From positions 96,001 through 160,000 of the forward strand of contig CBDCTH010000004.1 in the NCBI GenBank assembly GCA_965222155.1: 64,000 bases of DNA. The letters run 5' to 3'. The notes beneath the pieces were generated by a model. That model did not search any database. It saw nothing but the letters and a program-made list of their open reading frames with translations, and was not told the DNA's origin. This document shows, in pieces, positions 1-33,015 of the stretch. The stretch comes from Gammaproteobacteria bacterium (GTDB lineage Bacteria > Pseudomonadota > Gammaproteobacteria > Eutrophobiales > Eutrophobiaceae). How positions within the stretch are numbered: the stretch's first letter is position 1; every line of letters starts with the position of its first letter. The position numbers and the translations under genes are program-made.

Positions 1-1068
1 AGGTCGCATACCCAGGGTGAACCCGGTGGTGGCGTACCACGCCATGCATTTAAGCTTGATTCAACTTGTTCGCAAACCCCGTCCAGATTCGAAATCGACT
101 TCGTCATCGATGACGTAAGATACCATTATGGATTTGAAACAACGGATGAAGTTTTTGCTGCGGAGTGGCTGTACACTTTTCCCAAATCACATCGCAGAAA
201 GATGTTCGAGCGCGACAACAGCGAATTTGAATTTGGACGCTGGTTGAGAGGGCAGAACAATAATATTGCTGGATTGACTAGACCCAATAGCCTATTTTTA
301 TCAGCTGCCGCACAGAATGGTCATGAGCAGTTATCAAAAATATACGAATATTTTAGGTCAATTAAGTTTGCTAGTACGATTTCAATACCAGGTATAGAGG
401 CTTCAGCGCGATTTGTAGGAGATGACCCAGATTCACGGGTGATCGATTTCTTAGCATCGATCAATACTGGGGTTATTGGTTACCAAAAAAGGACAGATGA
501 AATTTCGGAAAAAGATCGAGCAATACGTCGAGAGCTAATCGCTATAGTTGAAAAGTTTTCAGATGGTCCTATAAAATTTGAACCCGACGAGGATGATAAG
601 CATGTTGCTATTGAACTGGCTCATCGTGGTCGGCAGGGAGAGTCGGTTTATCTTGACTTAGATTCGGAAAGCGCTGGTACACGGCGGTTATTGATAGTGC
701 TTGGCCTGGTATACCAAGCATTGGATAAGGGTGTCCCGCTATGCGTAGACGAAGTGGATGCCAGTCTGCATACCCATGCTAGTGAAGCGATATTGAAGTT
801 ATTCTGCCTACCAGAGATAAATCAAAGCGGTGCGCAGCTTATTGCTACAACTCACGATACTAACTTAATGAAATCGTCAGTATTGAGACGCGATCAACTT
901 TGGTTTACTGAAAAGACCTCGGAGGGAGCTACGGAGCTTTATCCGCTAACGGATATTCGAACGCGCAAGGGCGACAATATTGAATTAGGGTATTTGCAAG
1001 GCCGATTTGGAGCGCTTCCAAGTGACGACATAACATTGGAGCAGGCATCCAGGGTCAGACCAGCATAA
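1..1068 (+). CDS. AAA_21/RloA-like ABC-type ATPase, 5' truncated by the window edge
   Basis: Frame is open from base 1. Motifs RYHYGF, ESAGTRRL, Walker B VDEVDASLH, QLIATTHD, LRRDQLWF, YLQGRFGALP. The last codons are supplied by the MITE at 1046. Confidence 0.85.
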   Translation, partial: RSHTQGEPGGGVPRHAFKLDSTCSQTPSRFEIDFVIDDVRYHYGFETTDEVFAAEWLYTFPKSHRRKMFERDNSEFEFGRWLRGQNNNIAGLTRPNSLFLSAAAQNGHEQLSKIYEYFRSIKFASTISIPGIEASARFVGDDPDSRVIDFLASINTGVIGYQKRTDEISEKDRAIRRELIAIVEKFSDGPIKFEPDEDDKHVAIELAHRGRQGESVYLDLDSESAGTRRLLIVLGLVYQALDKGVPLCVDEVDASLHTHASEAILKLFCLPEINQSGAQLIATTHDTNLMKSSVLRRDQLWFTEKTSEGATELYPLTDIRTRKGDNIELGYLQGRFGALPSDDITLEQASRVRPA

Positions 1069-20369: not shown

Positions 20370-21473
20370 TTAAATTTTTCGATATTGCGTGGACCGACCC
20401 TGCCCGATTCTTTCAATCTTTTTGAGACGCAAAAGCTTATCCAGTGCCTGTCTCACTGTTGGTTGCACAACGTTTGTATTCTCAGCAATTTCACCAGGTC
20501 GTGCACTGTCAACTTTCCGAAGATACTCCCAGACTGCCATTTGCTTTGCGGTGAGCAACTTCTCAAGTTTTTCTTTTGCGAGTAATTCAACTGCCATCTG
20601 GGCCTGCTTGAGGAGCATGGTGAGGAAGAAATCAAGCCACGCTACGATATTATCTTTTTTCGCATCAAGCATTTTCTGAGTTTGACGAAGAGCGATATAG
20701 TATTCCGGCTTATTATCTTCAATCAGTTTCTCATGGGAGATGTAGGGCATGTACACATAACCCTCTTTGAGCAGAAGGAGATTTGTCAGGATGCGGCTAA
20801 GTCTGCCATTGCCATCCTGGAATGGATGAATAGCCAGGAACTGAACAAGAAAGTGCCCGATGATGAGCAGAGGATGATACCTTTTTTCTGCAAGCGATTG
20901 CTTGCTCCACTCAACCAACTCCTGCATCTCTTTGGGGGTGAGATAGGGCTCAGTGGTATTAAAGAGGATAGCAAGCGATTGGCCAGCCTCATCAACCATA
21001 TGCACCTTGTTCTCCCGCTTTTTGTAATTACCGCGATGTGGTTTGTCTTTTTCAACATATTTGAGAAGTTCCTGGTGGAAGTGCTTAATGGTATTCTCGT
21101 TAAAAGACAGTGTCCTCCATGAATTAAAAACGTTCTCAAGGAGTTCGTAGTATCCCTTCACTTCCTGTTTGTCCCGATTGGTGAATTTCTGAATATCAAT
21201 ACCACGCATCAGATTCTCAACATCCTTGTCTGAAAGGCGTGCACCCTCTATACGAGTCGATGCGCCGGTGGAGGTAATCAGAACAGAACGCTTAAGACGT
21301 CCTAACACCTGGACGCCAAGCTGTGCTCCGGCGACCCATCGTCCCTTCAACTCATCAATTTGAGCGAGTTTTAAGACGATTTCAGCCGGGATATACTTCA
21401 GCCGATGATCAAATTTTGTGCTTTTTCCCGTCATAGCAAATAATCTGATATACCCGACTATATCATTTTGCAT
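20370..21473 (-). CDS. Fic family protein with C-terminal HTH
   Basis: STRIEG inhibitory-type motif, HPFQDGNGRLSR; start may be the ATG at 21434. Confidence 0.92.
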   Translation of the reverse strand: MQNDIVGYIRLFAMTGKSTKFDHRLKYIPAEIVLKLAQIDELKGRWVAGAQLGVQVLGRLKRSVLITSTGASTRIEGARLSDKDVENLMRGIDIQKFTNRDKQEVKGYYELLENVFNSWRTLSFNENTIKHFHQELLKYVEKDKPHRGNYKKRENKVHMVDEAGQSLAILFNTTEPYLTPKEMQELVEWSKQSLAEKRYHPLLIIGHFLVQFLAIHPFQDGNGRLSRILTNLLLLKEGYVYMPYISHEKLIEDNKPEYYIALRQTQKMLDAKKDNIVAWLDFFLTMLLKQAQMAVELLAKEKLEKLLTAKQMAVWEYLRKVDSARPGEIAENTNVVQPTVRQALDKLLRLKKIERIGQGRSTQYRKI

Positions 21474-21650
21474 CAGAATAACTTGATATATACAACTATA
21501 TCAGATTATAACAGATTAGAGAATACCTGTCTGGGTGACACCGGGCGGTGCTGGAACAGAAAAATAAACGACCGAAGCATTCAGTCAATGGTTACATAAC
21601 TACAGTAGGCTTCAGGTTTTTCTTTCTCCAGCTAAATACGCATCTGCAAG

Positions 21651-21835
21651 CTAATCAAATTCCGGCGGATCAATTCCACTGCAATATCCAAATCGAGTGT
21701 AGCCCATGCCCAATCTGTGGTAACAACCCTGGTCTTCTCTCGAATTGCCAGGGCCAGGCAGGCACGATCGCCAAGCAACAGGCCCGTATCCCGCGTTGCT
21801 GTTCGCACAAGACCCGTTGTGATCGCAAGAGATCT
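21651..21835 (-). pseudogene. 3' remnant of a VapC paralogous to 33240-33620
   Basis: DNA similar to 33240-33410; [12 protein letters not shown] readable. Confidence 0.75.
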
Positions 21836-21948
21836 GCCCTGAATTTTGGTGGAGACAATGCTTTGGAAAAGACGCCCGGCAAGACACAGACACGAAAGCG
21901 CCTCAAGGTGTTGAGATCAGCTTGCCGGCAATGTATCAGCGACATGAT

Positions 21949-22108
21949 TCATCCAACGCTTTTGGCGACTCCCCACAAACAGCTTATTGGAAGGGCATAG
22001 GCCCTCTGACCGAAGGTCAGCTTCTGGTCGCCCAGGTAAAATACAATGGAAGTGACGCGCCGACGTTTTCCCGGCCCAATGTTACAGAACCAGTTCAAGT
22101 GCTTGAAG
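21949..22108 (-). pseudogene. C-terminal remnant of an AAA_14/DUF4143 ATPase
   Basis: [39 protein letters not shown] matches the C-terminus of 31735-33015; cut at the IS21 end. Confidence 0.8.
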
Positions 22109-24520
22109 TGCGGATTCCGGTCGAACGTGAACACTGATTCCGGTTGAACGTGAACACTTTTCGGGCCTTTCCGGAATCGGTGTTCACATTCCCGGAATCA
22201 GTGTTCACGTTGAACCGGAATCACCCCCAACGCATGGGACTTGTAACCCGGTGGTACGGTATCTCCTTTTTTTGGGAGAACCTGCCATGTCAAACAAGAG
22301 AACCACCCTGCGTACACTACGAGAGATACTACGGCGCCGGCTGCTGGCCGGTCTATCCATCCGCGCCATCAGCCGCAGCACCAAACTGAGTGTCGGCGGC
22401 GTACAGAAGCTCATCAGCCGGGCGGAGACGTTGCACCTGAGTTGGCCCTTGCCGGCCGAGCTGGATGATGCCCGCCTGGCCGAGCTGTTCTACCCCGGCG
22501 CCGACACCGGCACGGGGTCGCGTTGTGAGGCACCGGACTGGGCGGCGGTCCACGAGGAGTTGAAGCGTCCGCACATGACCCGGCAACTGGTGTGGGAAGA
22601 CTATACCCAGCGCGACCCGAACCGGTGTTGCAGCTACTCCCAGTTCTGTGACCGCTACCGCCACTGGCTCGGCCAACAACCGCGCACCATGCGCCAGGGG
22701 CATAAGGCCGGCGAGAAGTGCTTTGTCGATTACGGCGGTGACACCGTGCCCAGCATCGACGCCAGCACCGGCGAGGTGCGCCCGGCACCACTCTTCGTCG
22801 CCGTGCTGGGTGCCTCCGATTATACCTTCGCCGAGGCCACCTGGACCCAATCACTCCCCGACTGGCTCGCCAGCCACACCCGCGCCCTGTCCTTCTTCGG
22901 CGTCGTCCCCGCCCTCATCGTCCCCGACACCCTGCGCAGCGGCGTCAGCCGTGCCTGCCGCTACGACCCCGACATCAACCCCAGCTACCAGCAATGGGCC
23001 GAGCACTACCAGACCGCCATCCTCCCCGCACGCCCCTATACACCCCGCGACAAGGCCAAGGCCGAGCAGGGCGTGCTGCTGGGGCAGCGCTGGATCCTGG
23101 CCCGCCTGCGCCACCACCGCTTCTTCGCCCTGGACGAGTTGAACCGTCATAGCGCCGCCTGACTGGACGATCTTAATAACCGTCCCTTCAAACGCACGCC
23201 CGGCTGCCGCCGCAGCGCCTTTGAGTCCCTCGCCCCACCGGCATTAAAACCGTTGCCCCCTCAACCCTACCATTACCTCCACATCAAACCGGTGACCGTG
23301 CATATCGACTACCACGTTCAATATCAACAGCATGACTACTCCGTGCCGCACCAGTACGTGGGCGAGAGACTGGAGTTACACGCCGGTAACTCGTTGATTG
23401 AACTCTACGTCCACCAACGCTGCATCGCCACGCATGCGCGCCGGCACGCCCCCGGCTTCACCACGAACCCGGCCCACCTGCCCGCACGCCACCGCGCCCA
23501 GCAACAGTGGTCCCCCAAGCGCCGCACCCACCCCGAGCAGGCCTATCGCACCTGCTTAGGATTGCTCCAACTCAGCAAACGCTACCCTGACAGCCGCCTC
23601 AATGCCGCCTGCCAAATAGCCAACCAGAACGGCCTGGTGCGCCTCAAACAGGTCAAGCACCTGCTGGAGTCGAACCAGGACTCACTCATCGACACCCCCG
23701 AGCCGGATACCGCAGCTACCCCCCCGCTGCCCCAAGACCACGAGACTGTCCGCAGGCCGCAACACGTCAACTAACCGGAGACACCACCATGACCACCACC
23801 GCACACACCCTGACACGCCTGCGCGACCTCAGACTGCCCGGTATGGCACAGGCCCTCACTCAACAAACCGAACAGCCCGCCACCTACGACCCCCTCCCGT
23901 TCCTCGACCGACTCGCCCTCCTGCTCGAGCAAGAATGCCTGCAACGGGAACAACGTAACCAAGCGCGCCTCATCCGCCAGGCGCGCTTCAAACTGCACGC
24001 ATCCCGCCAGGCTATCGACTACCAATCATCCCGTGACCTGCAACCGGCACAGATAGCCCAACTCGCTCAGGGCGAGTGGCTGCAACGCGCCCATAACCTG
24101 CTCATCACCGGCCCCTGTGGCTCAGGTAAAACCTTCATCGCCTGCGCCCTCGGCCACCCGGCCTGCCGGCAAGGATACGCCACCCGCTACTTCCGCCTCC
24201 CCCGCCTGTTCCTCACCCTCACCCAGGCCAAGGCCAACGGCAGCTACCACAAACTCCTGCACCCGTTCACCAAGACCCAACTGCTCATCCTCGATGACTG
24301 GGGCATGGACACCCTCAACACCGCTCAGCGCCATGACCTCATGCCCCTCATGGATGACCGCTATCAGTCCGCCTCCACCCTGATAGCCAGCCAACTCCCC
24401 GTCGACCAATGGTATGCCGCCATCGGCGATAACACCCTCGCCGATGCCATCCTCGACCGGCTGGTGCATAATGCGCATCGACTGACATTAAAGGGGGAAT
24501 CCATGCGAAAAAAGCAGGGG
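22109..24520 (+). mobile_element. IS21 family element (istA/istB), degraded, right end missing
   Basis: Left end TGCGGATTCCGG..GTGAACACTGATTCCGG with internal repeats, followed by istA and istB. Confidence 0.88.
22287..23774 (+). pseudogene. istA: IstA transposase with in-frame TGA at 23160
   Basis: YSQFC, FVDY.G, FVAVLGAS.YTFAEA, PRDKAKAE. Confidence 0.88.
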
Positions 24521-24658
24521 ATGATGCTGTGGGTTGGATTTGCGCTTCACACCAACTCATCAACTCATCCCGGCAAGTCGTCAGCCGGGGGCATGTTTTG
24601 CGACCAAGTTGGGAACCCACAAGTATATGAATATGCAACTGCTGAAAGAGATGGATAA
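23789..24658 (+). CDS. istB: IstB ATPase; C-terminal tail after ~24520 is read-through
   Basis: GPCGSGKT, LLILDDWG, ADAILDRLVH, GESMRK. Confidence 0.88.
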   Translation: MTTTAHTLTRLRDLRLPGMAQALTQQTEQPATYDPLPFLDRLALLLEQECLQREQRNQARLIRQARFKLHASRQAIDYQSSRDLQPAQIAQLAQGEWLQRAHNLLITGPCGSGKTFIACALGHPACRQGYATRYFRLPRLFLTLTQAKANGSYHKLLHPFTKTQLLILDDWGMDTLNTAQRHDLMPLMDDRYQSASTLIASQLPVDQWYAAIGDNTLADAILDRLVHNAHRLTLKGESMRKKQGMMLWVGFALHTNSSTHPGKSSAGGMFCDQVGNPQVYEYATAERDG

Positions 24659-24737
24659 AGAGGCTATTTACTCAGCAGCATGAATGACTACCGGGATCAC
24701 CCCAGAGAAAAAAATGCGAAAGATTCTTGACACTACC

Positions 24738-24828
24738 TGCGTATTTCACTGAATCCTGCCGCCCATCACACGTGAAAGCTGCCACCCGGAACGGGGCAAA
24801 GCTGCCACCCATCGGAGCGTAGCGACGC
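24738..24828. mobile_element. Second IS21-type terminal remnant
   Basis: TGCGTATTTCA start, repeated AAAGCTGCCACCC, CGGAGCGTAGCGAC. Confidence 0.55.
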
Positions 24829-25719
24829 GGGTTTTGGTCGACAATGTTCCGTGTCTCCGAACCAGAATACGAGATAAATTCCATAACTATCTGCGCCCGG
24901 GTCCCGAGTGTATTTGGCAATCAACTGCGTTTTTATCGCACTCCAAAGATCGCGATGACAGCTTCTCTTAACCTCCACCGGAGCGTTGAAACTACCGTAA
25001 CATACGTGAATGTCTGACCGTTTGTCGTTGGCGTAACGACCCTCCGGTTGGGCGTCGATACCCAATTGCTTTAACCTGTCTTGTAAAGCTGATAACAGTG
25101 CATCCCGGCACGCGTCTTCCGGTTTCGGGTTCTGTGGTCGATTGTAAGAGTCTACGTTCCAATACTGGCGCCAGTCGGATGTGTTTCCATAGCGGATGTT
25201 TTTTGATATTACGCGTAAATATTCAAACGTCAGCGCGGCGAGGTCGTTAGCGTTCGCAGGATTGCGATTATCGAGTACCTCAAGCACCTGCTCGACCTCG
25301 GGATGCTGAAATTCGACTTCACGTCGCGTGATGTTCTGTTGATATTTGGCATCGTTGAGATAGGACCGCCAAGGGAGCAGCTCATCGTCGGACGACAGCG
25401 TTTCGAGAGCATCGGTAGCGGCCCGGGTTGGGACGGATGCCAGTTGATTGATGAATCTCCGAATGTGGTCCGGCGCTGTCATGGCCGCTGTCACAGTAAT
25501 GTCTTCTTCCGAAGTGGAATCAAGAGAATAAGGTCTGCAGGAAGGACCGATCAGCCGGACCAGAAGTTGCAGTATCGGAACAGTCAGGCGTTCGATGACC
25601 CCTTGGGTTTGGACCGCCGCCAAGCATCGAAGTCGGCGTTCATTACCGGCTGTATAGGATGCCAGCCTTTCGAGATACGAGTCCGGCGAAGCAAGAAGAC
25701 CGGCGGGAGTTTGGGACAC
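24766..25719 (-). pseudogene. C-terminal part of a large protein with a PD-(D/E)xK-like nuclease domain
   Basis: EDACRDAL...PEGRYANDKRSDI...PVEVKR...QL..KY..DP...YGIYLVFWFG; 3' end replaced by the IS remnant. Confidence 0.6.
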
Positions 25720-25765
25720 TCATAAAATAGCGAATTCATGCCACTGAGTCTTATCGCCAGACCGA

Positions 25766-26236
25766 CTAATTAATCTTGCAAAGGATCCTTATATGATTGC
25801 CTTTCATTTCTGCCTGGTATTTCGGAGGATCCCGGAAGGGCCATGGGCAATCGCCCCGCTTTTTCATCCAATTACCGATGCTTTGGCTACGAATTTCCGA
25901 GCATGTGCGCCAGAATGATGGGCTTAGTTCGATATTCAGGGGCTGCACTTCACCGTTGCAGAGAGGCAGTTCGAGGACAACTTCACTCAGCCCTTTGAAC
26001 AGTTTATTACGATCCATTAGCTTTACTCCGAACCCCAATGCTCCTGGTGCCTCCCTTGTTCCCGATTTCCAACCAGTCAATTCTATAATCGCCATGTTCA
26101 TCCACTCAGTGTTTTTGGATATAGAAAGTATAAACCCCGTTATTCTCGCAAATCCATACTCATTTTTTGTCAGCCTTTCCCTCTTCTTCACTGGAAGCTG
26201 ATATAAGTTTGTCCAATATGTATTGCACCCGGACAA
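25766..26236 (-). CDS. Hypothetical protein (start probably nearer 26096)
   Basis: Protein-like C-terminal region SFW.TCSEIRS..IG.W....PWP...PPK. Confidence 0.55.
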   Translation of the reverse strand: MSGCNTYWTNLYQLPVKKRERLTKNEYGFARITGFILSISKNTEWMNMAIIELTGWKSGTREAPGALGFGVKLMDRNKLFKGLSEVVLELPLCNGEVQPLNIELSPSFWRTCSEIRSQSIGNWMKKRGDCPWPFRDPPKYQAEMKGNHIRILCKIN

Positions 26237-26243
26237 TGTATTG

Positions 26244-27529
26244 GGAACTTCTATTTATTGACGTTTTCTGGCACATTGCCTACGTGAGCAGGCAAGCGGA
26301 CTATTTTGTATATAAAGCTATGCCATACATGCGCTGATGGGCCTCTGTCTACCCACCAAACGGGCTGTTTGACCCCTTCAGGTGTCTGTTTAACACCCTT
26401 TTATGCCTGTTCCCCGTCATGCGGGCGCGCTGACCCCTTCCAGGTAACACAATCGTCGCATGTTATACACCAGGTTCAGCATCCCAATGGCCAACTCACT
26501 GCGCGCCAGCCCGATACAGCGTATCAGCTTGGCCCGGGTCGCACACTGCGCCCCGAACACGTGTTCCACCCGCACCCGCACCTTGGCCCGCGTGCGGTTG
26601 CCCTGCTGCGCCCACGCCGTCAACGGCTTGTTGCGGCGCCCCTTGCGCTGAATGTGGCTGCGGTAGCGCTGGGCCTGCAAGCGTTCCTCCTGCTCCCTGG
26701 AACGGTAGGCGCGGTCCGCCCATAACGCCTTGCTGCTGTTGTGCTCATCCAACAACTCATCGAGCAGTTGGGAATCATGCACAGTCGCCGCGCTCACCGC
26801 ATACGTGCGTATCAGCTTGTGCTTGTTGTCCACGTTCACGTGATTCTTGTACCCGTAATGACTCCTGCCCCGCTGCTTCGTCCAACGTGCCTCCACGTCC
26901 TTCTGCCGCCGCTTGGATTTGGCTGCCTCATCGTCCCAGCCCGCCGGTGCCTCCCCCGCCTTTATCGCCGCATTCTCCTCGCGCGTGTTGCGCTGCACCG
27001 GCGCCGGCACCAGGGACGCATCCACCCACTGCCCCGTGCGCGCCCGATACCCCAAGTCTGCTAACTGCTCGGCAAACCGTGCAAACAGTTCCTCCATCAA
27101 TTTCAGCTCCACCAACTTCTCACGAAACGCCCAGAAGGTCTTCGCAGCCGGCGCCCGATGATAGTTATCCAACCCCATAAACCGCTGAAAACTGCGCCGG
27201 TCTTCAAGCTGATATTCCAACTGCTCATCACTCAACCCGTACAAATGCTGTATCACCAACCCCTTGAACAGCAGCACCTCATCCCGACGCGGCGCACCCG
27301 CCTTGCGCTTGCGGGTCGTGGGACGGATACGCACCAATAGCGGACGAAATGCCTCCCAGTCCACTACCTCACCCAACCGCACCAGGGGATCCTTCAGTTT
27401 ATTCAAGCGGGTGTCTTGCAAGTCAAACAACGAACCGAATATGTCTTGTGTCTTCATGAAACCACCTTGAGGAAAGAGTTGAAATAAGTCACCGCTATTA
27501 TATCATCTGACCGAATAAATAGAGGTTCC
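26244..27529 (-). mobile_element. IS5 family element
   Basis: TIRs GGAACTTCTATTTATT / AATAAATAGAGGTTCC. Confidence 0.9.
26417..27457 (-). CDS. IS5 family transposase
   Basis: LSDEQLEYQ.EDR.SF, VDAS, YGYKNH, AD.AY, RVEHVFG. Confidence 0.92.
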   Translation of the reverse strand: MKTQDIFGSLFDLQDTRLNKLKDPLVRLGEVVDWEAFRPLLVRIRPTTRKRKAGAPRRDEVLLFKGLVIQHLYGLSDEQLEYQLEDRRSFQRFMGLDNYHRAPAAKTFWAFREKLVELKLMEELFARFAEQLADLGYRARTGQWVDASLVPAPVQRNTREENAAIKAGEAPAGWDDEAAKSKRRQKDVEARWTKQRGRSHYGYKNHVNVDNKHKLIRTYAVSAATVHDSQLLDELLDEHNSSKALWADRAYRSREQEERLQAQRYRSHIQRKGRRNKPLTAWAQQGNRTRAKVRVRVEHVFGAQCATRAKLIRCIGLARSELAIGMLNLVYNMRRLCYLEGVSAPA

Positions 27530-29585: not shown

Positions 29586-29616
29586 AAAAAAAGCCAAAGG
29601 CCTCCGAAGAGGCCTT
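29586..29616 (-). terminator. Rho-independent terminator of the candidate ncRNA
   Basis: Minus strand AAGGCCTC-TTCG-GAGGCCTT, then TGGC-T7. Confidence 0.75.
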
Positions 29617-29771
29617 ATCGAAACCCCGGCAGGCTTGGCATCACCAACGCCAGGATTTGCTACCGACAAATCTGCCTGGAGCAGATTTGGACGCTCGAAG
29701 AGCGCCTGAAGGGTGCGTCCCATGGATGGGACGCATCAGGTAGTCTCACTTGCCCGGAATTCACGGGAACG
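29586..29771 (-). ncRNA. Candidate structured ncRNA (~185 nt) downstream of the PemK-like toxin
   Basis: Own sigma70-like promoter and terminator, at least five hairpins, no credible ORF. Confidence 0.6.
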
Positions 29772-29777
29772 GAATCG

Positions 29778-29806
29778 ATCATGGCGCGTTACATGTTAAT
29801 AGTCAA
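29778..29806 (-). promoter_or_regulatory. Sigma70-like promoter TTGACT-N17-CATGAT
   Basis: Near-consensus hexamers with 17-bp spacing. Confidence 0.7.
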
Positions 29807-29847
29807 GAATATTTATTGCTGACAACAGGAATATTTATTGCTGACAA
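29807..29847. repeat. 19-bp direct repeat GAATATTTATTGCTGACAA x2
   Basis: 29807-29825 and 29829-29847. Confidence 0.9.
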
Positions 29848-29865
29848 ATGAAAAATAGGAACAAA

Positions 29866-30261
29866 TTAGAGAGTCAGCCAGAATCTCACACCATCTTTTA
29901 TGGCTAAGAAATCATGCATCGTGATGCAAGAGGTTGAATACATACGTTTTCCTCGAGGATCACGACCTATCAATATCCTGTCAAGACGGTTTATTGAAAC
30001 AGTTGTTACCATGTCACATTTAGCCCAAGTCTCATCCCTTGTAAACTTGCCCGCAAGAGATGCCGAATCCATCAAATGATGATATGGCTGTGGACCATCC
30101 GGCGGACTGGTTGAGAGTGGTATTACAGTACAGGTTAACGACTTTCGCGACCTTCTCGACAGTACGACAACAGGCCGTCTTTTTGTCATTTCTGGCGGCA
30201 CAAAACCGGAAAAATCACAAATCAATAATTGTCCCGGGTGCGGGCAAGCTGACAATCCCAT
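29866..30261 (-). CDS. Orphan PemK/MazF-family toxin
   Basis: PGQLLICDFSGFVPPEMTKRRPVVVLS, TVIPLST, WAKCDMVTTVS..RLD; likely start ATG 30261. Confidence 0.88.
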   Translation of the reverse strand: MGLSACPHPGQLLICDFSGFVPPEMTKRRPVVVLSRRSRKSLTCTVIPLSTSPPDGPQPYHHLMDSASLAGKFTRDETWAKCDMVTTVSINRLDRILIGRDPRGKRMYSTSCITMHDFLAIKDGVRFWLTL

Positions 30262-30381
30262 AATAAACAATCCGTATTATCCGTAATTTGAATTCTAGCT
30301 TATATCTTGTTCGCCGATTCACTCCCACCATAACCGGACAAGCCTCCATCAATAAGGCCTTGTGACTTATTGATGGAGGCT

Positions 30382-30470
30382 TGGCGGAGAGTGTGGGATT
30401 CGAACCCACGAAGGGCATTACCCTTGCCGGGTTATCAACCCGGGGCATTAAACCACTCTGCCAACTCTGG
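30382..30470 (-). tRNA. Atypical 89-nt tRNA-like gene: Ser-type body, GAT (Ile) anticodon, two terminal acceptor mismatches
   Basis: D arm GCAGAGTGGTTTAATGC; anticodon arm CCGGG-TTGATAA-CCCGG; long variable arm AAGGGT-AAT-GCCCTT; T arm GTGGG-TTCGAAT-CCCAC; ends GCCA. Confidence 0.8.
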
Positions 30471-30534
30471 AAAGAGGTATCGCTTTCCAGAGTTGGCTAT
30501 ACTCTAAGACAATGTAACTCAATCATTAAAAATA

Positions 30535-30759
30535 TCAAGTCGTACAGTCGGAGTCTGAAAATCGATAACCCTCGATCCAACAACGTCGTAAGGCGGTGCC
30601 GCCTTTAAACGCCAGTTTTTTGCGCAGTGGATGATCAGCCAAGCCGGTCAGGAACCACGCTAACATATAGTCTCGTTCGATCACAGCTTCAGGAGTACGT
30701 CGTCCGCTGTCTGTCGTCAGTGTATTTGCAATGAGTGAAATATTCCGTTGGGGGATCAT
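30535..30759 (-). pseudogene. Truncated AbiEii toxin
   Basis: IERDY.L, LAFKGGTALRRC...YRFS, then breaks before EDLDF. Confidence 0.85.
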
Positions 30760-31595
30760 CAGCCGAGTCTCACGGTATTCAGTTCTTCCGGGGATACATT
30801 TAATTGAAGTCGCCAACGTGAAAAATACTGTCCACCCGCTGGTAACACCGGATCGAGGCGCTGATACGTATTTGTTAACATTGAGCGCAGGTATTCAAGC
30901 GTGTCGGCATTGGTCAATTCATAGAACTCAAGTAAGTACCCAAGCCGACGTACTACTGCACCGACGCCGAGACGCTCCGCATATTCCAACAAACGTTCCA
31001 CGTTCAGTGAATCACGCTTCATCCACATACCTTTACCCACCTCCGTGATTCCACCGACATGGGCAGGGTGACGCAAACTATCAATGACGGTACGCTCCAA
31101 GTCACTGATCATCACAAACCGTTGTCCATCCACCCAGTGTTTCATTGTCCCGAATGTTTTAGCTTCGCTGACATGAATGAATTTGAACGGGTAGCCGCCA
31201 ACTGTTTGAGGGCGTATCCTTTTTGCACATGACACATACATGGTCAAAATCGGCTGTGTCACCATGCGATGGAACTCAAACGCTGTGCCGTGGGACAGGA
31301 AGTACCGATTTGCCCCCACCATTTCATGGGCTATCAGGTAGGGGCTATCGACATGTTCATGCGCTCGACCCATTTGAAATGGAACCAGGTTATACAAACC
31401 TGGTTTGAGCCGTGTCACAAGACCCCGCCGCTCTGCCTTATGTACCAGGTTGCGGGCGGCAGCCGGTGACAGGCCAGTGATGGATTCCACGTCTGCCAGC
31501 ATGAACGTCGACCGACGCCGTTCATTCAAGTCAGTAAACAGTTGTGCGGCCCGCGGTCCCAGCGTCTTAAATGTAGACTTATATTTTAAACCCAT
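30759..31595 (-). CDS. AbiEi-type (type IV TA) antitoxin/transcriptional regulator
   Basis: N-terminal wHTH RLKPGLY, SDLERTVID, RRLGYLLE; coupled to AbiEii. Confidence 0.85.
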   Translation of the reverse strand: MGLKYKSTFKTLGPRAAQLFTDLNERRRSTFMLADVESITGLSPAAARNLVHKAERRGLVTRLKPGLYNLVPFQMGRAHEHVDSPYLIAHEMVGANRYFLSHGTAFEFHRMVTQPILTMYVSCAKRIRPQTVGGYPFKFIHVSEAKTFGTMKHWVDGQRFVMISDLERTVIDSLRHPAHVGGITEVGKGMWMKRDSLNVERLLEYAERLGVGAVVRRLGYLLEFYELTNADTLEYLRSMLTNTYQRLDPVLPAGGQYFSRWRLQLNVSPEELNTVRLG

Positions 31596-31734: not shown

Positions 31735-33015
31735 TTAAACCTGTCCCCACAAACAGCTTATCGGCAGGGCGTATCTCCGTTCACCGAATGTCAGTTGCTG
31801 GTCGCCGAGATAAAATACAATAGAGGTGACCTGTCGACGTTTACCCGGTCCATCGCTGCCGAACCAGTCCAGGTGCTTGAAGCTTCCAGTGCCTACCGAT
31901 AATGACGCTTTGACTTCAATTGCTACCAGGTGGTTGGCGCTTTCCGCGAGTATGTCTATTTCATGACCCCTTTGATCGCGCCAGTGATAGAAGCGGAAAC
32001 TATTTTCCTGAAAGGGCGCTGCGCGGATCAACTCCGATAGGACAAAGCTTTCCATCAGACCGCCAAGAGCGGTTGGATTTGCGTCGGCATGAAAGGAATC
32101 CGGTTTCAGGTTACGTAGCGCTGAAGCGATTCCCGTATCCACAAAATGATTTTTCGAGTTCTTGATTTCGCGCCGGGTTTCACCGGATGCCCAGGCCCCA
32201 AGTCTGGTGACAATTGAGAGTTTCAAGAGAACATCAAGATACTGCTCCGTGGTTTTCCTCTGCACCCCAATAATTTCGCATAACTCTGCGATATTGAGTT
32301 CCGAACCGGTGCGAACGGCTAATTGATCGATCATGCGCCGCAGTGCATCAGTCTTGCGCACGGGCAGCAGATCTGCGATGTCTCTGTCGACCACGGCATC
32401 CACGTAATTTCGATACGCGGCTTGTCTGGGCGCTAGCGGATAGCTCCTGATTTCCGGATATCCACCGCGCAGCAGGAGATCGATATAAGCGGCGCGCGTC
32501 AACGGTTCGGCTGGGGGCAGACGCCTTAAATCGGGGGAGTTTGAGACTGCCCAATCCAGCAGACGGCACGGCGGCTGCGACCTCGTTTCAGCGATTGACA
32601 AGGGCCAGAGCTTGAGGGTCAGCACACGCCCGGCAAGAGAGTCCGCTACGTCTGCTGTCGTAAACACATTGGATGACCCGGTCAGGATGAACTGACCCTT
32701 GCGCCTGTTCGCATCGACAATCATCTTGATGGCAAGTGCGAGCTTCTTTGAGCGCTGCGCTTCATCAATGATCAGTGGCGCCTCTGCAAGATGGCTCAGA
32801 AGGCTCCCGAGCTGCCCTGAGGGATCGTCCTCTATGGCATTGAGCGTGTTCCGATCATCCAGCGTGATAAACTTGCCCACATTCAGAATGTCTCTGACGA
32901 GCGTTGTCTTTCCTGCTTGTCTCGGCCCGATAATGTTCACCACACGGGAATAAGAGAGAGCTTTTTGTAATTCGACGCTCAGGTGGCGAGGAAGAATAGG
33001 GTTGTCATTTAACAT
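31735..33015 (-). CDS. AAA_14 + DUF4143 ATPase
   Basis: GPRQAGKTT, IIDEAQ, LTGSS, GGYPE, WRD..G.EID, AIEVK. Confidence 0.9.
   Translation of the reverse strand: MLNDNPILPRHLSVELQKALSYSRVVNIIGPRQAGKTTLVRDILNVGKFITLDDRNTLNAIEDDPSGQLGSLLSHLAEAPLIIDEAQRSKKLALAIKMIVDANRRKGQFILTGSSNVFTTADVADSLAGRVLTLKLWPLSIAETRSQPPCRLLDWAVSNSPDLRRLPPAEPLTRAAYIDLLLRGGYPEIRSYPLAPRQAAYRNYVDAVVDRDIADLLPVRKTDALRRMIDQLAVRTGSELNIAELCEIIGVQRKTTEQYLDVLLKLSIVTRLGAWASGETRREIKNSKNHFVDTGIASALRNLKPDSFHADANPTALGGLMESFVLSELIRAAPFQENSFRFYHWRDQRGHEIDILAESANHLVAIEVKASLSVGTGSFKHLDWFGSDGPGKRRQVTSIVFYLGDQQLTFGERRYALPISCLWGQV

Follow-up and report, generated by a model that had tools for sequence, protein, structure and literature searches.

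Toxins of the MazF/PemK type are the textbook case of type II systems, in which the antitoxin is a protein, and the locus described here raises the question of how such a toxin might be controlled when no gene for a protein partner lies beside it. The locus is part of a 64,000-nt stretch of DNA, hereafter referred to as the window, from a bacterium of the Gammaproteobacteria (GenBank assembly GCA_965222155.1, contig CBDCTH010000004.1, positions 96,001 to 160,000 of the forward strand). A preliminary description of the sequence had listed, in minus-strand order, a hairpin, a tRNA-like gene, a second hairpin, a PemK-like open reading frame (ORF), direct repeats, a sigma70 promoter, a multi-hairpin RNA and a terminator, and every one of these elements was recovered at its place (Table 1). 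The analysis of related loci presented below revealed that the toxin gene is accompanied by a conserved structured RNA gene. Based on this association, it is proposed, at about an even chance, that toxin and RNA constitute a type III-like module in which the RNA would bind and restrain the MazF-fold ribonuclease (RNase).

The PemK-like nature of the ORF at 29866-30261 was corroborated by the Pfam search, in which PF02452 (PemK_toxin) was the only significant match (48.3 bits at a cut-off of 23.1, E 1.3e-12). An AlphaFold2 model of the toxin, built on 27 relatives, showed a mean predicted local distance difference test (pLDDT) value of 88.2 and a predicted template modelling (pTM) score of 0.83. 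Using this model, Foldseek identified 93 PDB matches at E <= 0.001; among the matches listed, all were MazF/PemK toxins, and the nearest solved structures were MazF of M. tuberculosis, S. aureus, B. subtilis and E. coli, with template modelling (TM) scores of 0.65-0.80. In the profile alignment to E. coli MazF (5ck9_A), the invariant R29 of the family corresponds to residue 29 and the near-invariant S50 to residue 52, i.e., to R29 and T52, which we take to be the catalytic Arg and Thr of the E. coli enzyme. According to these data, the toxin has the MazF/PemK fold, with both catalytic positions kept. Furthermore, relatives of the toxin feature the motifs PPEM.K.RP, WAKCDM and RLDR. Several of them are labelled 'YifN (PemK superfamily)' by one source and 'type II ... 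PemK/MazF family toxin' by others. No family for the toxin was found in NCBIfam, and PADLOC provided no defence-system model for it.

Toxin relatives are encoded in 375 stretches among approximately 185,000 species genomes and were found at least 465 times in a metagenome collection, and the family is uncommon but broad. For the comparative analysis, the best 80 of the 375 stretches from species genomes (L001-L080) and the best 80 of the at least 465 from metagenomes (L101-L180) were considered. These relatives share 39-79% identity with the toxin; they were picked by toxin similarity and include many kin. Relatives occur in Pseudomonas, in Planctomycetes and in alpha-, beta- and gammaproteobacteria; two are encoded on plasmids and one on a phage-like element of Vibrio. 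The two closest relatives, L001 and L002, originate from gammaproteobacterial metagenome-assembled genomes. Their coding regions are 75-77% identical to the window at the DNA level, and the 3' 77-80 nt of the RNA are 96% and 92.5% identical.

In order to search for the RNA, two covariance models were used, namely R1, based on the sequences of the window, L001 and L002 only, and R2, based on 90 aligned matches; the window RNA itself scored 137 bits with R1 and 86.8 bits with R2. A full-length R1 match was located directly 3' of the toxin gene in 57 of the 80 genome loci and in 50 of the 75 metagenome loci (flank of at least 220 nt). R2 recovered most of the remaining loci, including 53 outside its own training set, and a search with the filters switched off yielded five further loci with the RNA. 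In total, the RNA was detected beside the toxin gene in 153 of the 157 loci possessing at least 180 nt after the stop codon. The downstream non-coding RNA, which the preliminary description had put forward as a possible antitoxin, is thereby supported as a real and conserved companion of the toxin with a covarying structure, and a role as antitoxin would agree with these observations. Five of the counted matches are weak (L079, L075, L029, L057 and L066; E 0.003-0.012, with model E-values being rough). The RNA is encoded downstream of the toxin gene in 149 of the 153 loci, seven of these having it on the opposite strand, and immediately upstream on the same strand in the other four (L057, L066, L069, L163). 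The gap between the toxin stop codon and position 1 of the RNA model has a median of 27.5 nt.

The association was also observed in the reverse direction. Exactly one copy of the RNA is present in the genome of the window, and among 150 other genomes sampled from the phylum, one gave a match, situated immediately 3' of the gene for a toxin relative with 43.5% identity. Moreover, the RNA was identified beside toxin relatives on the Polaromonas plasmid pH8NP1 (40.1 bits), on a Vibrio phage-like element of 13.8 kb, where the pair is located at the element's end (36.1 bits), and on the E. coli plasmid p5217 (5.2 kb; 27.5 bits), where the RNA is convergent with the toxin gene and preceded by a TTGATA-16-TATAAT promoter. 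Carriage on plasmids and phage-like elements is typical of addiction or defence modules. Rfam 15 provided no match at E <= 1 over positions 29586-29800 or at the RNA positions of eight relatives. Likewise, neither this RNA nor any RNA partner of a MazF-family toxin was found to be described in the literature searched, most subscription journals lying outside its coverage. The downstream RNA thus represents a conserved structured family that is new to Rfam 15.

Two side observations were made on the surroundings of the pair. L185 (PQ189291.1, 354-773 of the record) and ten similar Vibrio records represent phage-like elements of Vibrio cyclitrophicus, 13-15 kb in size, in which the toxin-RNA pair is terminal cargo beside a CI/S24-type repressor, an excisionase and a P2 gpA-like replication gene. 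On the metagenome contig L113, two Acido-Lenti-1 RNA matches are located just downstream of the pair (2360-2405 on the minus and 2498-2543 on the plus strand; 54.8 and 27.8 bits at a gathering score of 37).

Members of the RNA family are single-copy and roughly 120-140 nt in size, and their fold comprises four helices. Within the alignment of the 90 matches, 85.2% of the cells assigned to pairs were actually paired, compared to 59.9% in column shuffles and 31-53% in a control with partners slid by one to three columns. Double-sided changes were counted in 747 cells vs. 233 expected from shuffles, and none of 500 shuffles reached 747. Helix 1, a short 5' hairpin (GUUCCCG...CGGGC), was paired in 97.5% of the cells and showed double-sided changes in all four of its pairs. 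The corresponding values were 99.3% with four of five pairs covarying for helix 2, which is closed by GACU.../...AGC, 89.5% with 11 of 11 pairs for the long helix 3, and 98.3% with eight of eight pairs for helix 4, the 3' terminator-like hairpin. Because this alignment is fitted to the model, an unfitted MAFFT alignment of 30 diverse members was evaluated in addition, from which RNAalifold recovered helices 1-3 with compensatory changes in 16 of the 18 predicted pairs.

Besides the helices, two unpaired segments are conserved, namely the linker after helix 1 (consensus UUGUGAGACU; CAAGUGAGACU in the window) and the apical loop of helix 3 (consensus GAUGACAA within GGCGAUGACAAGCC; GAUGCCAA in the window). 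The latter covaries with the tail just after helix 4, as exemplified by the combinations GACAA/UUGUC, GCCAA/UUGGC and UGCAA/UUGC. When scored by fixed columns, only 58% of the cells were paired; since the model-fitted alignment does not keep the tail in register, this test was replaced by a register-free one. Of 65 distinct sequences, 59 then formed the inner pair, compared to a mean of 41 and a maximum of 52 among 2000 shuffles, and 46 formed both pairs, compared to a shuffled mean of 24.8 and a maximum of 37. These values indicate that loop and tail pair with each other in a predicted pseudoknot.

The sigma70 promoter assigned to the RNA in the preliminary description (TTGACT-17-CATGAT) is kept in L001 and L002 and was found to be enriched throughout the family. 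A promoter scoring at least 9/12 against the consensus was present in 58% of 140 distinct regions upstream of the RNA and in 2.9% of 700 control regions chosen at random from the same loci. Its spacer measures 17 nt in 95 of the 140 regions, and it ends just before model position 1. The terminator described at the other end of the gene was likewise recovered as a terminator-like hairpin (29616-29597) followed by a T run. Taken alone, single promoter and terminator matches are weak, five promoter-like sites being present in the window region vs. 2.5 +/- 1.5 expected; they carry weight because they are conserved in the relatives. Frequent G-U pairs occur on one strand only, and for this reason the toxin's strand is the fitting transcribed strand for the RNA. 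Since the RNA lies on the opposite strand in seven loci with its own promoter, which travels with it in the inverted loci, it is a separate gene and more than a 3' untranslated region. In the window, its transcript probably starts near position 29771. As a side observation, the -35 element (TTGAC) lies within the last toxin codons, with the stop codon in the spacer, in many relatives (e.g., L003, L005, L012, L020, L064); this overlap may constrain the conserved C-terminal ...GL..LT.HL motif of the toxin.

Evidence for a protein partner was sought at several levels. In the window, no plausible antitoxin ORF exists on either side of the toxin gene, as had been stated before; the small ORFs present there overlap the tRNA-like gene, an inserted repeat (see below) or the RNA. 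Neighbour clustering of the 80 genome loci (blastp cut-off 1e-5, which very divergent small proteins could escape) revealed no conserved protein neighbour, only synteny groups of Pseudomonas, and outside these groups no cluster occurred in more than three loci. In a rough check of the RNA regions, the longest complete ORF measured 30 codons in the median and 56 at most, with no consistent frame.

Based on these findings, a mode of action can be outlined for the proposed module. The RNA would be produced constitutively from its own promoter, bind the RNase directly and keep it inactive, possibly as a substrate mimic or as a processed substrate. A drop in RNA supply, caused by loss of the plasmid or element or by phage transcription shut-off, would free the RNase, which would then cut cellular or phage RNA. 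A more far-reaching proposal, put forward tentatively and at somewhat less than an even chance, is that of a widespread new class of toxin-RNA pairs, in which a MazF-fold RNase would be checked by a single-copy pseudoknotted small RNA (sRNA) that combines the roles of antitoxin and sensor, the toxin being triggered when this RNA is lost, and in which a unit of approximately 0.6-0.9 kb would spread on small plasmids, on phage-like elements and as inserts beyond tRNAs. If true, many genes labelled 'type II PemK/MazF toxin' would be wrongly typed, RNA-based toxin control would be extended to the best-known toxin fold, and a class of 'orphan' toxins would be explained and their annotation corrected. 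The new RNA family, with its strong covariation and pseudoknot, is suited to structural and biochemical study, and the copies on small plasmids represent ready-made test systems.

Among the known systems, ToxN of type III systems has a fold related to that of Kid/MazF. The type III systems ToxIN, CptIN and TenpIN resemble the locus in combining an endoribonuclease-type toxin lacking a protein antitoxin with an adjacent pseudoknotted non-coding RNA (predicted in the present case) and in being carried by plasmids and mobile elements. They differ in three respects. The toxin described here is a true PemK/MazF member and not of the ToxN/AbiQ, CptN or TenpN families. The type III antitoxin is a tandem array of short repeats located upstream of the toxin gene with a shared promoter and terminator, whereas the RNA of the present family is a single unit of four helices that is encoded downstream (149 of 153 loci) with its own promoter. 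The absence of ToxI-style tandem repeats noted in the preliminary description was thus confirmed, and the only tandem repeat at the locus is a 22-nt duplication outside the RNA. By analogy, the module would work most like a type III system, yet without two of the defining features, namely the toxin family and the upstream repeat array.

Regarding type II systems, the toxin shares fold and Pfam family with MazEF/PemIK (Kis-Kid), the catalytic Arg and Thr/Ser positions align, and public annotation calls its relatives 'type II' toxins; in contrast to these systems, no MazE/PemI-type gene lies upstream here, and no conserved protein neighbour exists. The E. coli K-12 gene yifN (PemK superfamily) has the PPEM.K.R motif in common with the toxin but is a pseudogene broken by stop codons. 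Finally, a pemK RNA motif, reportedly from the work of Weinberg et al. in 2017 and included in Rfam, is said to be a structured RNA linked to pemK genes and located upstream of them. The RNA described here differs from this motif, since neither the window sequence nor the RNAs of eight relatives matched any Rfam family at E <= 1. In PMC5737381, the pemK RNA motif is not mentioned in the main text.

Several points weigh against the type III-like interpretation. Toxicity, binding and neutralisation by the RNA are all inferred, and the layout, with no tandem repeat array and with a downstream RNA having its own promoter, is unlike that of known type III systems. Four of the 157 loci lack a convincing RNA, with no match in L117, L128 and L152 and a weak one in L017 (E 0.38). 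Moreover, the association of 97% holds for the closest approximately 160 relatives and is not to be extended to the whole PemK superfamily, because the 157 loci represent the closest relatives. The RNA is missing in more distant members such as the broken yifN of E. coli K-12, near which the best full-length match scored 4 bits. On plasmid p5217 (L184, NC_011799.1), an ORF of 86 aa without Pfam family is present at 90-350, 15 nt upstream of a toxin relative of 169 aa. It appears only in a later re-annotation and could encode a protein antitoxin or partner in this branch; because of its position upstream of the toxin gene, some branches may have a protein partner. At the transcript level, the only RNA library containing part of the stretch (X1) covers positions 30149-30326 at a depth of 2.3 and not the RNA gene. 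It contains a tenth of the sampled words and, in addition, generic 31-nt tRNA pieces; being contigs of an RNA library, these data do not show transcription and speak neither for nor against expression. Furthermore, an sRNA candidate reported for p5217 has 73 Hfq-mediated partners (PMC8550237), which would favour a base-pairing regulator if that candidate were identical to the RNA described here.

The latter point leads to the alternative that the RNA is a base-pairing sRNA, possibly Hfq-dependent, acting on the toxin mRNA or on other mRNAs in a type I-like or an ordinary trans-acting manner. Its own promoter and its terminator with a U tail fit this explanation, as does the convergent arrangement in seven loci, where the RNA abuts or overlaps the 3' end of the toxin gene by up to approximately 8 nt. 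On p5217, the RNA copy (853-999, minus strand) is convergent with the toxin gene and overlaps its 3' end by approximately 23 nt. According to PMC8550237, RNA interaction by ligation and sequencing (RIL-seq) of p5217-carrying E. coli uncovered the Hfq-associated sRNA candidate 'E2348_P3_01.AS1', which is antisense to gene 01 of the plasmid. This gene appears to be the toxin gene, judging from the protein accession numbering, and the candidate may represent the p5217 copy of the RNA. Against base pairing speaks that in 142 of the 153 loci the RNA follows the toxin gene on the same strand and is thus not antisense to it. RNAduplex predictions with the toxin start region gave means of -52.5 kcal/mol for cognate and -51.7 kcal/mol for non-cognate combinations (p 0.19, 139 pairs); this comparison, a crude one with long duplexes, lends antisense control no support. 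Moreover, a compact four-helix pseudoknot with few free bases would be unusual for seed-pairing. A base-pairing role of the RNA is regarded as quite unlikely.

Another explanation, judged unlikely though somewhat less so, is that toxin and RNA form a ribonucleoprotein of a different role, in which the MazF-fold protein would serve as a processing or partner protein and the RNA would be the active part, e.g., a regulator or sensor. The same association and covariation data fit this explanation. It also agrees with the conservation of the RNA in close relatives, which exceeds that of the protein gene (92-96% vs. 75-77% at the DNA level), and with the module standing alone between housekeeping genes in several genomes. 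However, the MazF catalytic positions are kept, and the module is carried by small plasmids and, next to a CI-type repressor, by a phage-like element, as is typical of addiction or defence cargo. Restraint of the RNase by the RNA accordingly remains the reading followed here, at the strength given above.

Table 1. Coordinates of the features at the toxin-RNA locus within the window (minus-strand order).
Feature	Position	Strand	Remarks
AbiEii toxin gene stump	30535-30816	-	Pfam AbiEii profile positions 1-34 of 238 only
15-bp perfect hairpin/palindrome	30460-30474/30483-30497	-	overlaps the 5' end of the tRNA-like gene; 3' arm is its first 11 bases
tRNA-like gene	30382-30470	-	ARAGORN and Rfam; probably a decayed copy of tRNA-Ser(UGA)
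18-bp perfect hairpin	30339-30356/30366-30383	-	between tRNA-like gene and toxin gene; upstream edge of the similarity to L002
toxin gene, 131 aa, predicted MazF/PemK fold	29866-30261	-	Pfam PF02452
22-nt tandem duplication	29804-29847	-	just upstream of the -35 element of the RNA promoter
sigma-70-type RNA promoter, TTGACT-17-CATGAT	29778-29806	-	kept in L001, L002 and the family
conserved structured RNA gene	29586-29778	-	covariance models R1 and R2; here interrupted by a repeat
RNA helix 1 (CCCG-loop-CGGG), then single-stranded linker	29753-29767, approximate	-	
RNA helix 2 (GACUACC/GGUAGC), repeat in apical loop	29659-29745, approximate	-	
inserted REP-like three-hairpin repeat	29665-29738	-	outside the RNA family proper
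RNA helix 3, long stem; apical loop predicted to pair with the 3' tail	29620-29657, approximate	-	
RNA helix 4 (terminator-like hairpin 29597-29616) and tail UUUGGCUUUUU with predicted pseudoknot partner	29586-29616	-	

The window copy of the RNA deviates from its relatives in that the apical loop of helix 2 contains an insertion of 74 nt (29665-29738), which is missing in L001 and L002. The insertion is a repetitive extragenic palindromic (REP)-like repeat with three hairpins, the consensus of which ends with ...GTCCAAATCTGCTCCAGGCAGATTTGTC. Counting this copy, the genome of the window yielded 44 matches at E <= 1e-5, of which 33 span 60 nt or more; one of the other copies is located at G000 C12:2354844-2354917. 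Stem changes between the copies are compensatory, and among 399 other genomes of the class, 18 contain similar sequences. The 186-nt stretch of the window folds at -82.4 kcal/mol (z -4.58), with none of 200 shuffles being as good, and the repeat-free RNA of L002 reaches z -1.24 only. Much or most of the fold signal and of the multi-hairpin look of the window RNA hence originates from the repeat: the RNA of approximately 185 nt in the preliminary description is real and conserved, but its multi-hairpin shape was inflated by the insertion. The helix-2 loop comprises 2-24 nt in the other 89 aligned members, and because the repeat is situated in a loop that tolerates insertions in relatives, the window RNA is probably still functional. 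The window copy represents a case of a REP-like insertion disguising a conserved RNA.

A second peculiarity of the window concerns the direct repeats between toxin gene and RNA. They are present as described, their length being not 19 bp but 22 nt in each of two copies that are 95% alike. The repeat duplicates the segment just upstream of the -35 element, which is single-copy in L001 and L002. Contigs of the runs X2, X4 and X5 contain the same locus, including the REP-like repeat and the tRNA-like gene, minus exactly 22 nt at position 29807. The direct repeat is a local duplication.

The tRNA-like gene was reported by ARAGORN as 'tRNA-Ile GAT' of 89 nt (30382-30470) and reached 45.2 bits with the Rfam tRNA model at a gathering score of 29. 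Its body is of the Ser type with a long variable arm, and its anticodon loop reads GAU (Ile). It is identical in 78 of 89 positions to tRNA-Ser(UGA) of the same genome, whereas it shares 62-65 bases with the three remaining Ser tRNAs. Compared to the host tRNA, compensated differences are present at two stem positions, which suggests descent from a working tRNA-Ser of another host. The acceptor pairs 1-72 and 2-71 are C-C, and the 7-bp acceptor stem is not intact; the 5' strand is also able to pair with an arm of the upstream 15-nt palindrome. Furthermore, the gene is absent from L001 and L002, the similarity to L002 starting at the 3' end of the tRNA (CGCCA) and including the 18-bp hairpin. 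Because the closest relatives lack it and its acceptor stem is broken, the tRNA-like gene is read as a decayed relic that travels with the module and is probably no working part of it, contrary to the preliminary description, in which it was considered a possible part of the module. It is probably the remnant of a tRNA-Ser that once stood beside the module and was carried with it into an AbiE locus. As a separate observation, the gene and its flank (30319-30484, minus strand) match weakly to Rfam sX4 (30.8 bits at a gathering score of 70), an sRNA of Xanthomonas with a consensus that itself appears tRNA-Ser-like.

The surroundings of the relatives were also screened for tRNA genes. In the flanks of the 160 loci, 36 of 39 tRNA genes point with their 3' end at the module and three point away, and a tRNA with its 3' end facing the module within 500 nt was found in 16 of the 160 loci. 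These tRNAs are of many kinds and mostly ordinary. Three loci stand out: L059 (2849-2934) and L180 (1648-1730) feature odd class-II-like tRNA genes 67 and 48 nt upstream of the toxin relatives, respectively, the one in L180 having a CUA (amber-reading) anticodon and scoring 53.7 bits in Rfam, the one in L059 being degenerate, with a malformed anticodon loop and a score below the Rfam gathering score. In L168, the toxin-RNA pair is located alone between two convergent tRNA genes approximately 1 kb apart.

Some MazF enzymes cut tRNAs, and the preliminary description had considered a tRNA-coupled mechanism, in which a MazF that cuts tRNAs would be offered the tRNA-like RNA as a decoy or as a replacement substrate. 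The unusual closeness and orientation of the tRNA genes (16 of 160 loci; 36 of 39 genes) and the odd genes just upstream in L059 and L180 speak in its favour. On the other hand, in approximately nine of ten loci the nearest 500 nt are free of tRNA genes, the tRNAs belong to many, mostly ordinary kinds and lie beyond the RNA gene in convergent cases, and the window copy has a broken acceptor stem and no counterpart in the closest relatives. In addition, the orientation bias is what insertion beside tRNA 3' ends would give. Proximity to tRNAs fits an insertion-site preference better than a decoy, and a tRNA-coupled mechanism is accordingly considered very improbable. In the simplest reading, the pair of approximately 0.6-0.9 kb is preferentially inserted, or preferentially persists, immediately behind tRNA genes.

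No integrase was found beside ten tRNA-adjacent copies. The ten ORFs inspected there encode a short-chain dehydrogenase, an IS1595 transposase, a GFO/IDH/MocA oxidoreductase, a Glu/Gln-type tRNA synthetase, a SCPU-domain protein and five proteins without family. Likewise, the window contains no second copy of the tRNA 3' end with up to three mismatches and no direct repeat of the attachment (att) type. These results bear on the possibility that the conserved element acts as DNA, e.g., as the site at which a small mobile unit recombines or attaches. The position of the module beside tRNA 3' ends and at the end of the Vibrio element hints at mobility, and the very high sequence identity to L001 and L002 would also suit a DNA site. 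However, frequent G-U wobbles are confined to one strand, both the promoter and the terminator are conserved, four helices and the pseudoknot covary, and only one transposase (IS1595) and no integrase occurred among the ten ORFs, so that a function as DNA is extremely improbable. The element is treated here as an RNA gene paired with the toxin gene.

Regarding its genomic context, the segment comprising tRNA-like gene, toxin gene and RNA gene sits where an AbiE locus was broken, because AbiEii ends after the first 34 of 238 profile positions. The upstream AbiEi gene is intact (30759-31595), and its AbiEii partner is cut after approximately 90 codons. As a side observation, AbiEi in the region 30535-31595 thus represents an antitoxin-like regulator without its toxin. 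The 15-bp palindrome (30460-30497) coincides with the junction to the truncated AbiEii gene; it may be a scar left by the rearrangement. Near-identical DNA was not found in E. coli genomes, and a search of plasmid DNA yielded matches only to AbiEii and to generic tRNA. The surrounding region harbours IS21-type transposase genes (split, with IstB), a DDE transposase, a Fic/DOC protein and a second AbiEi-like gene, and a DUF4143/AAA_14 ATPase encoded nearby matches the PADLOC candidate system PDC-S01 (E 2e-135). The parts of the window at 31735-33015 and 20370-27457 form a mosaic island of mobile and defence genes.

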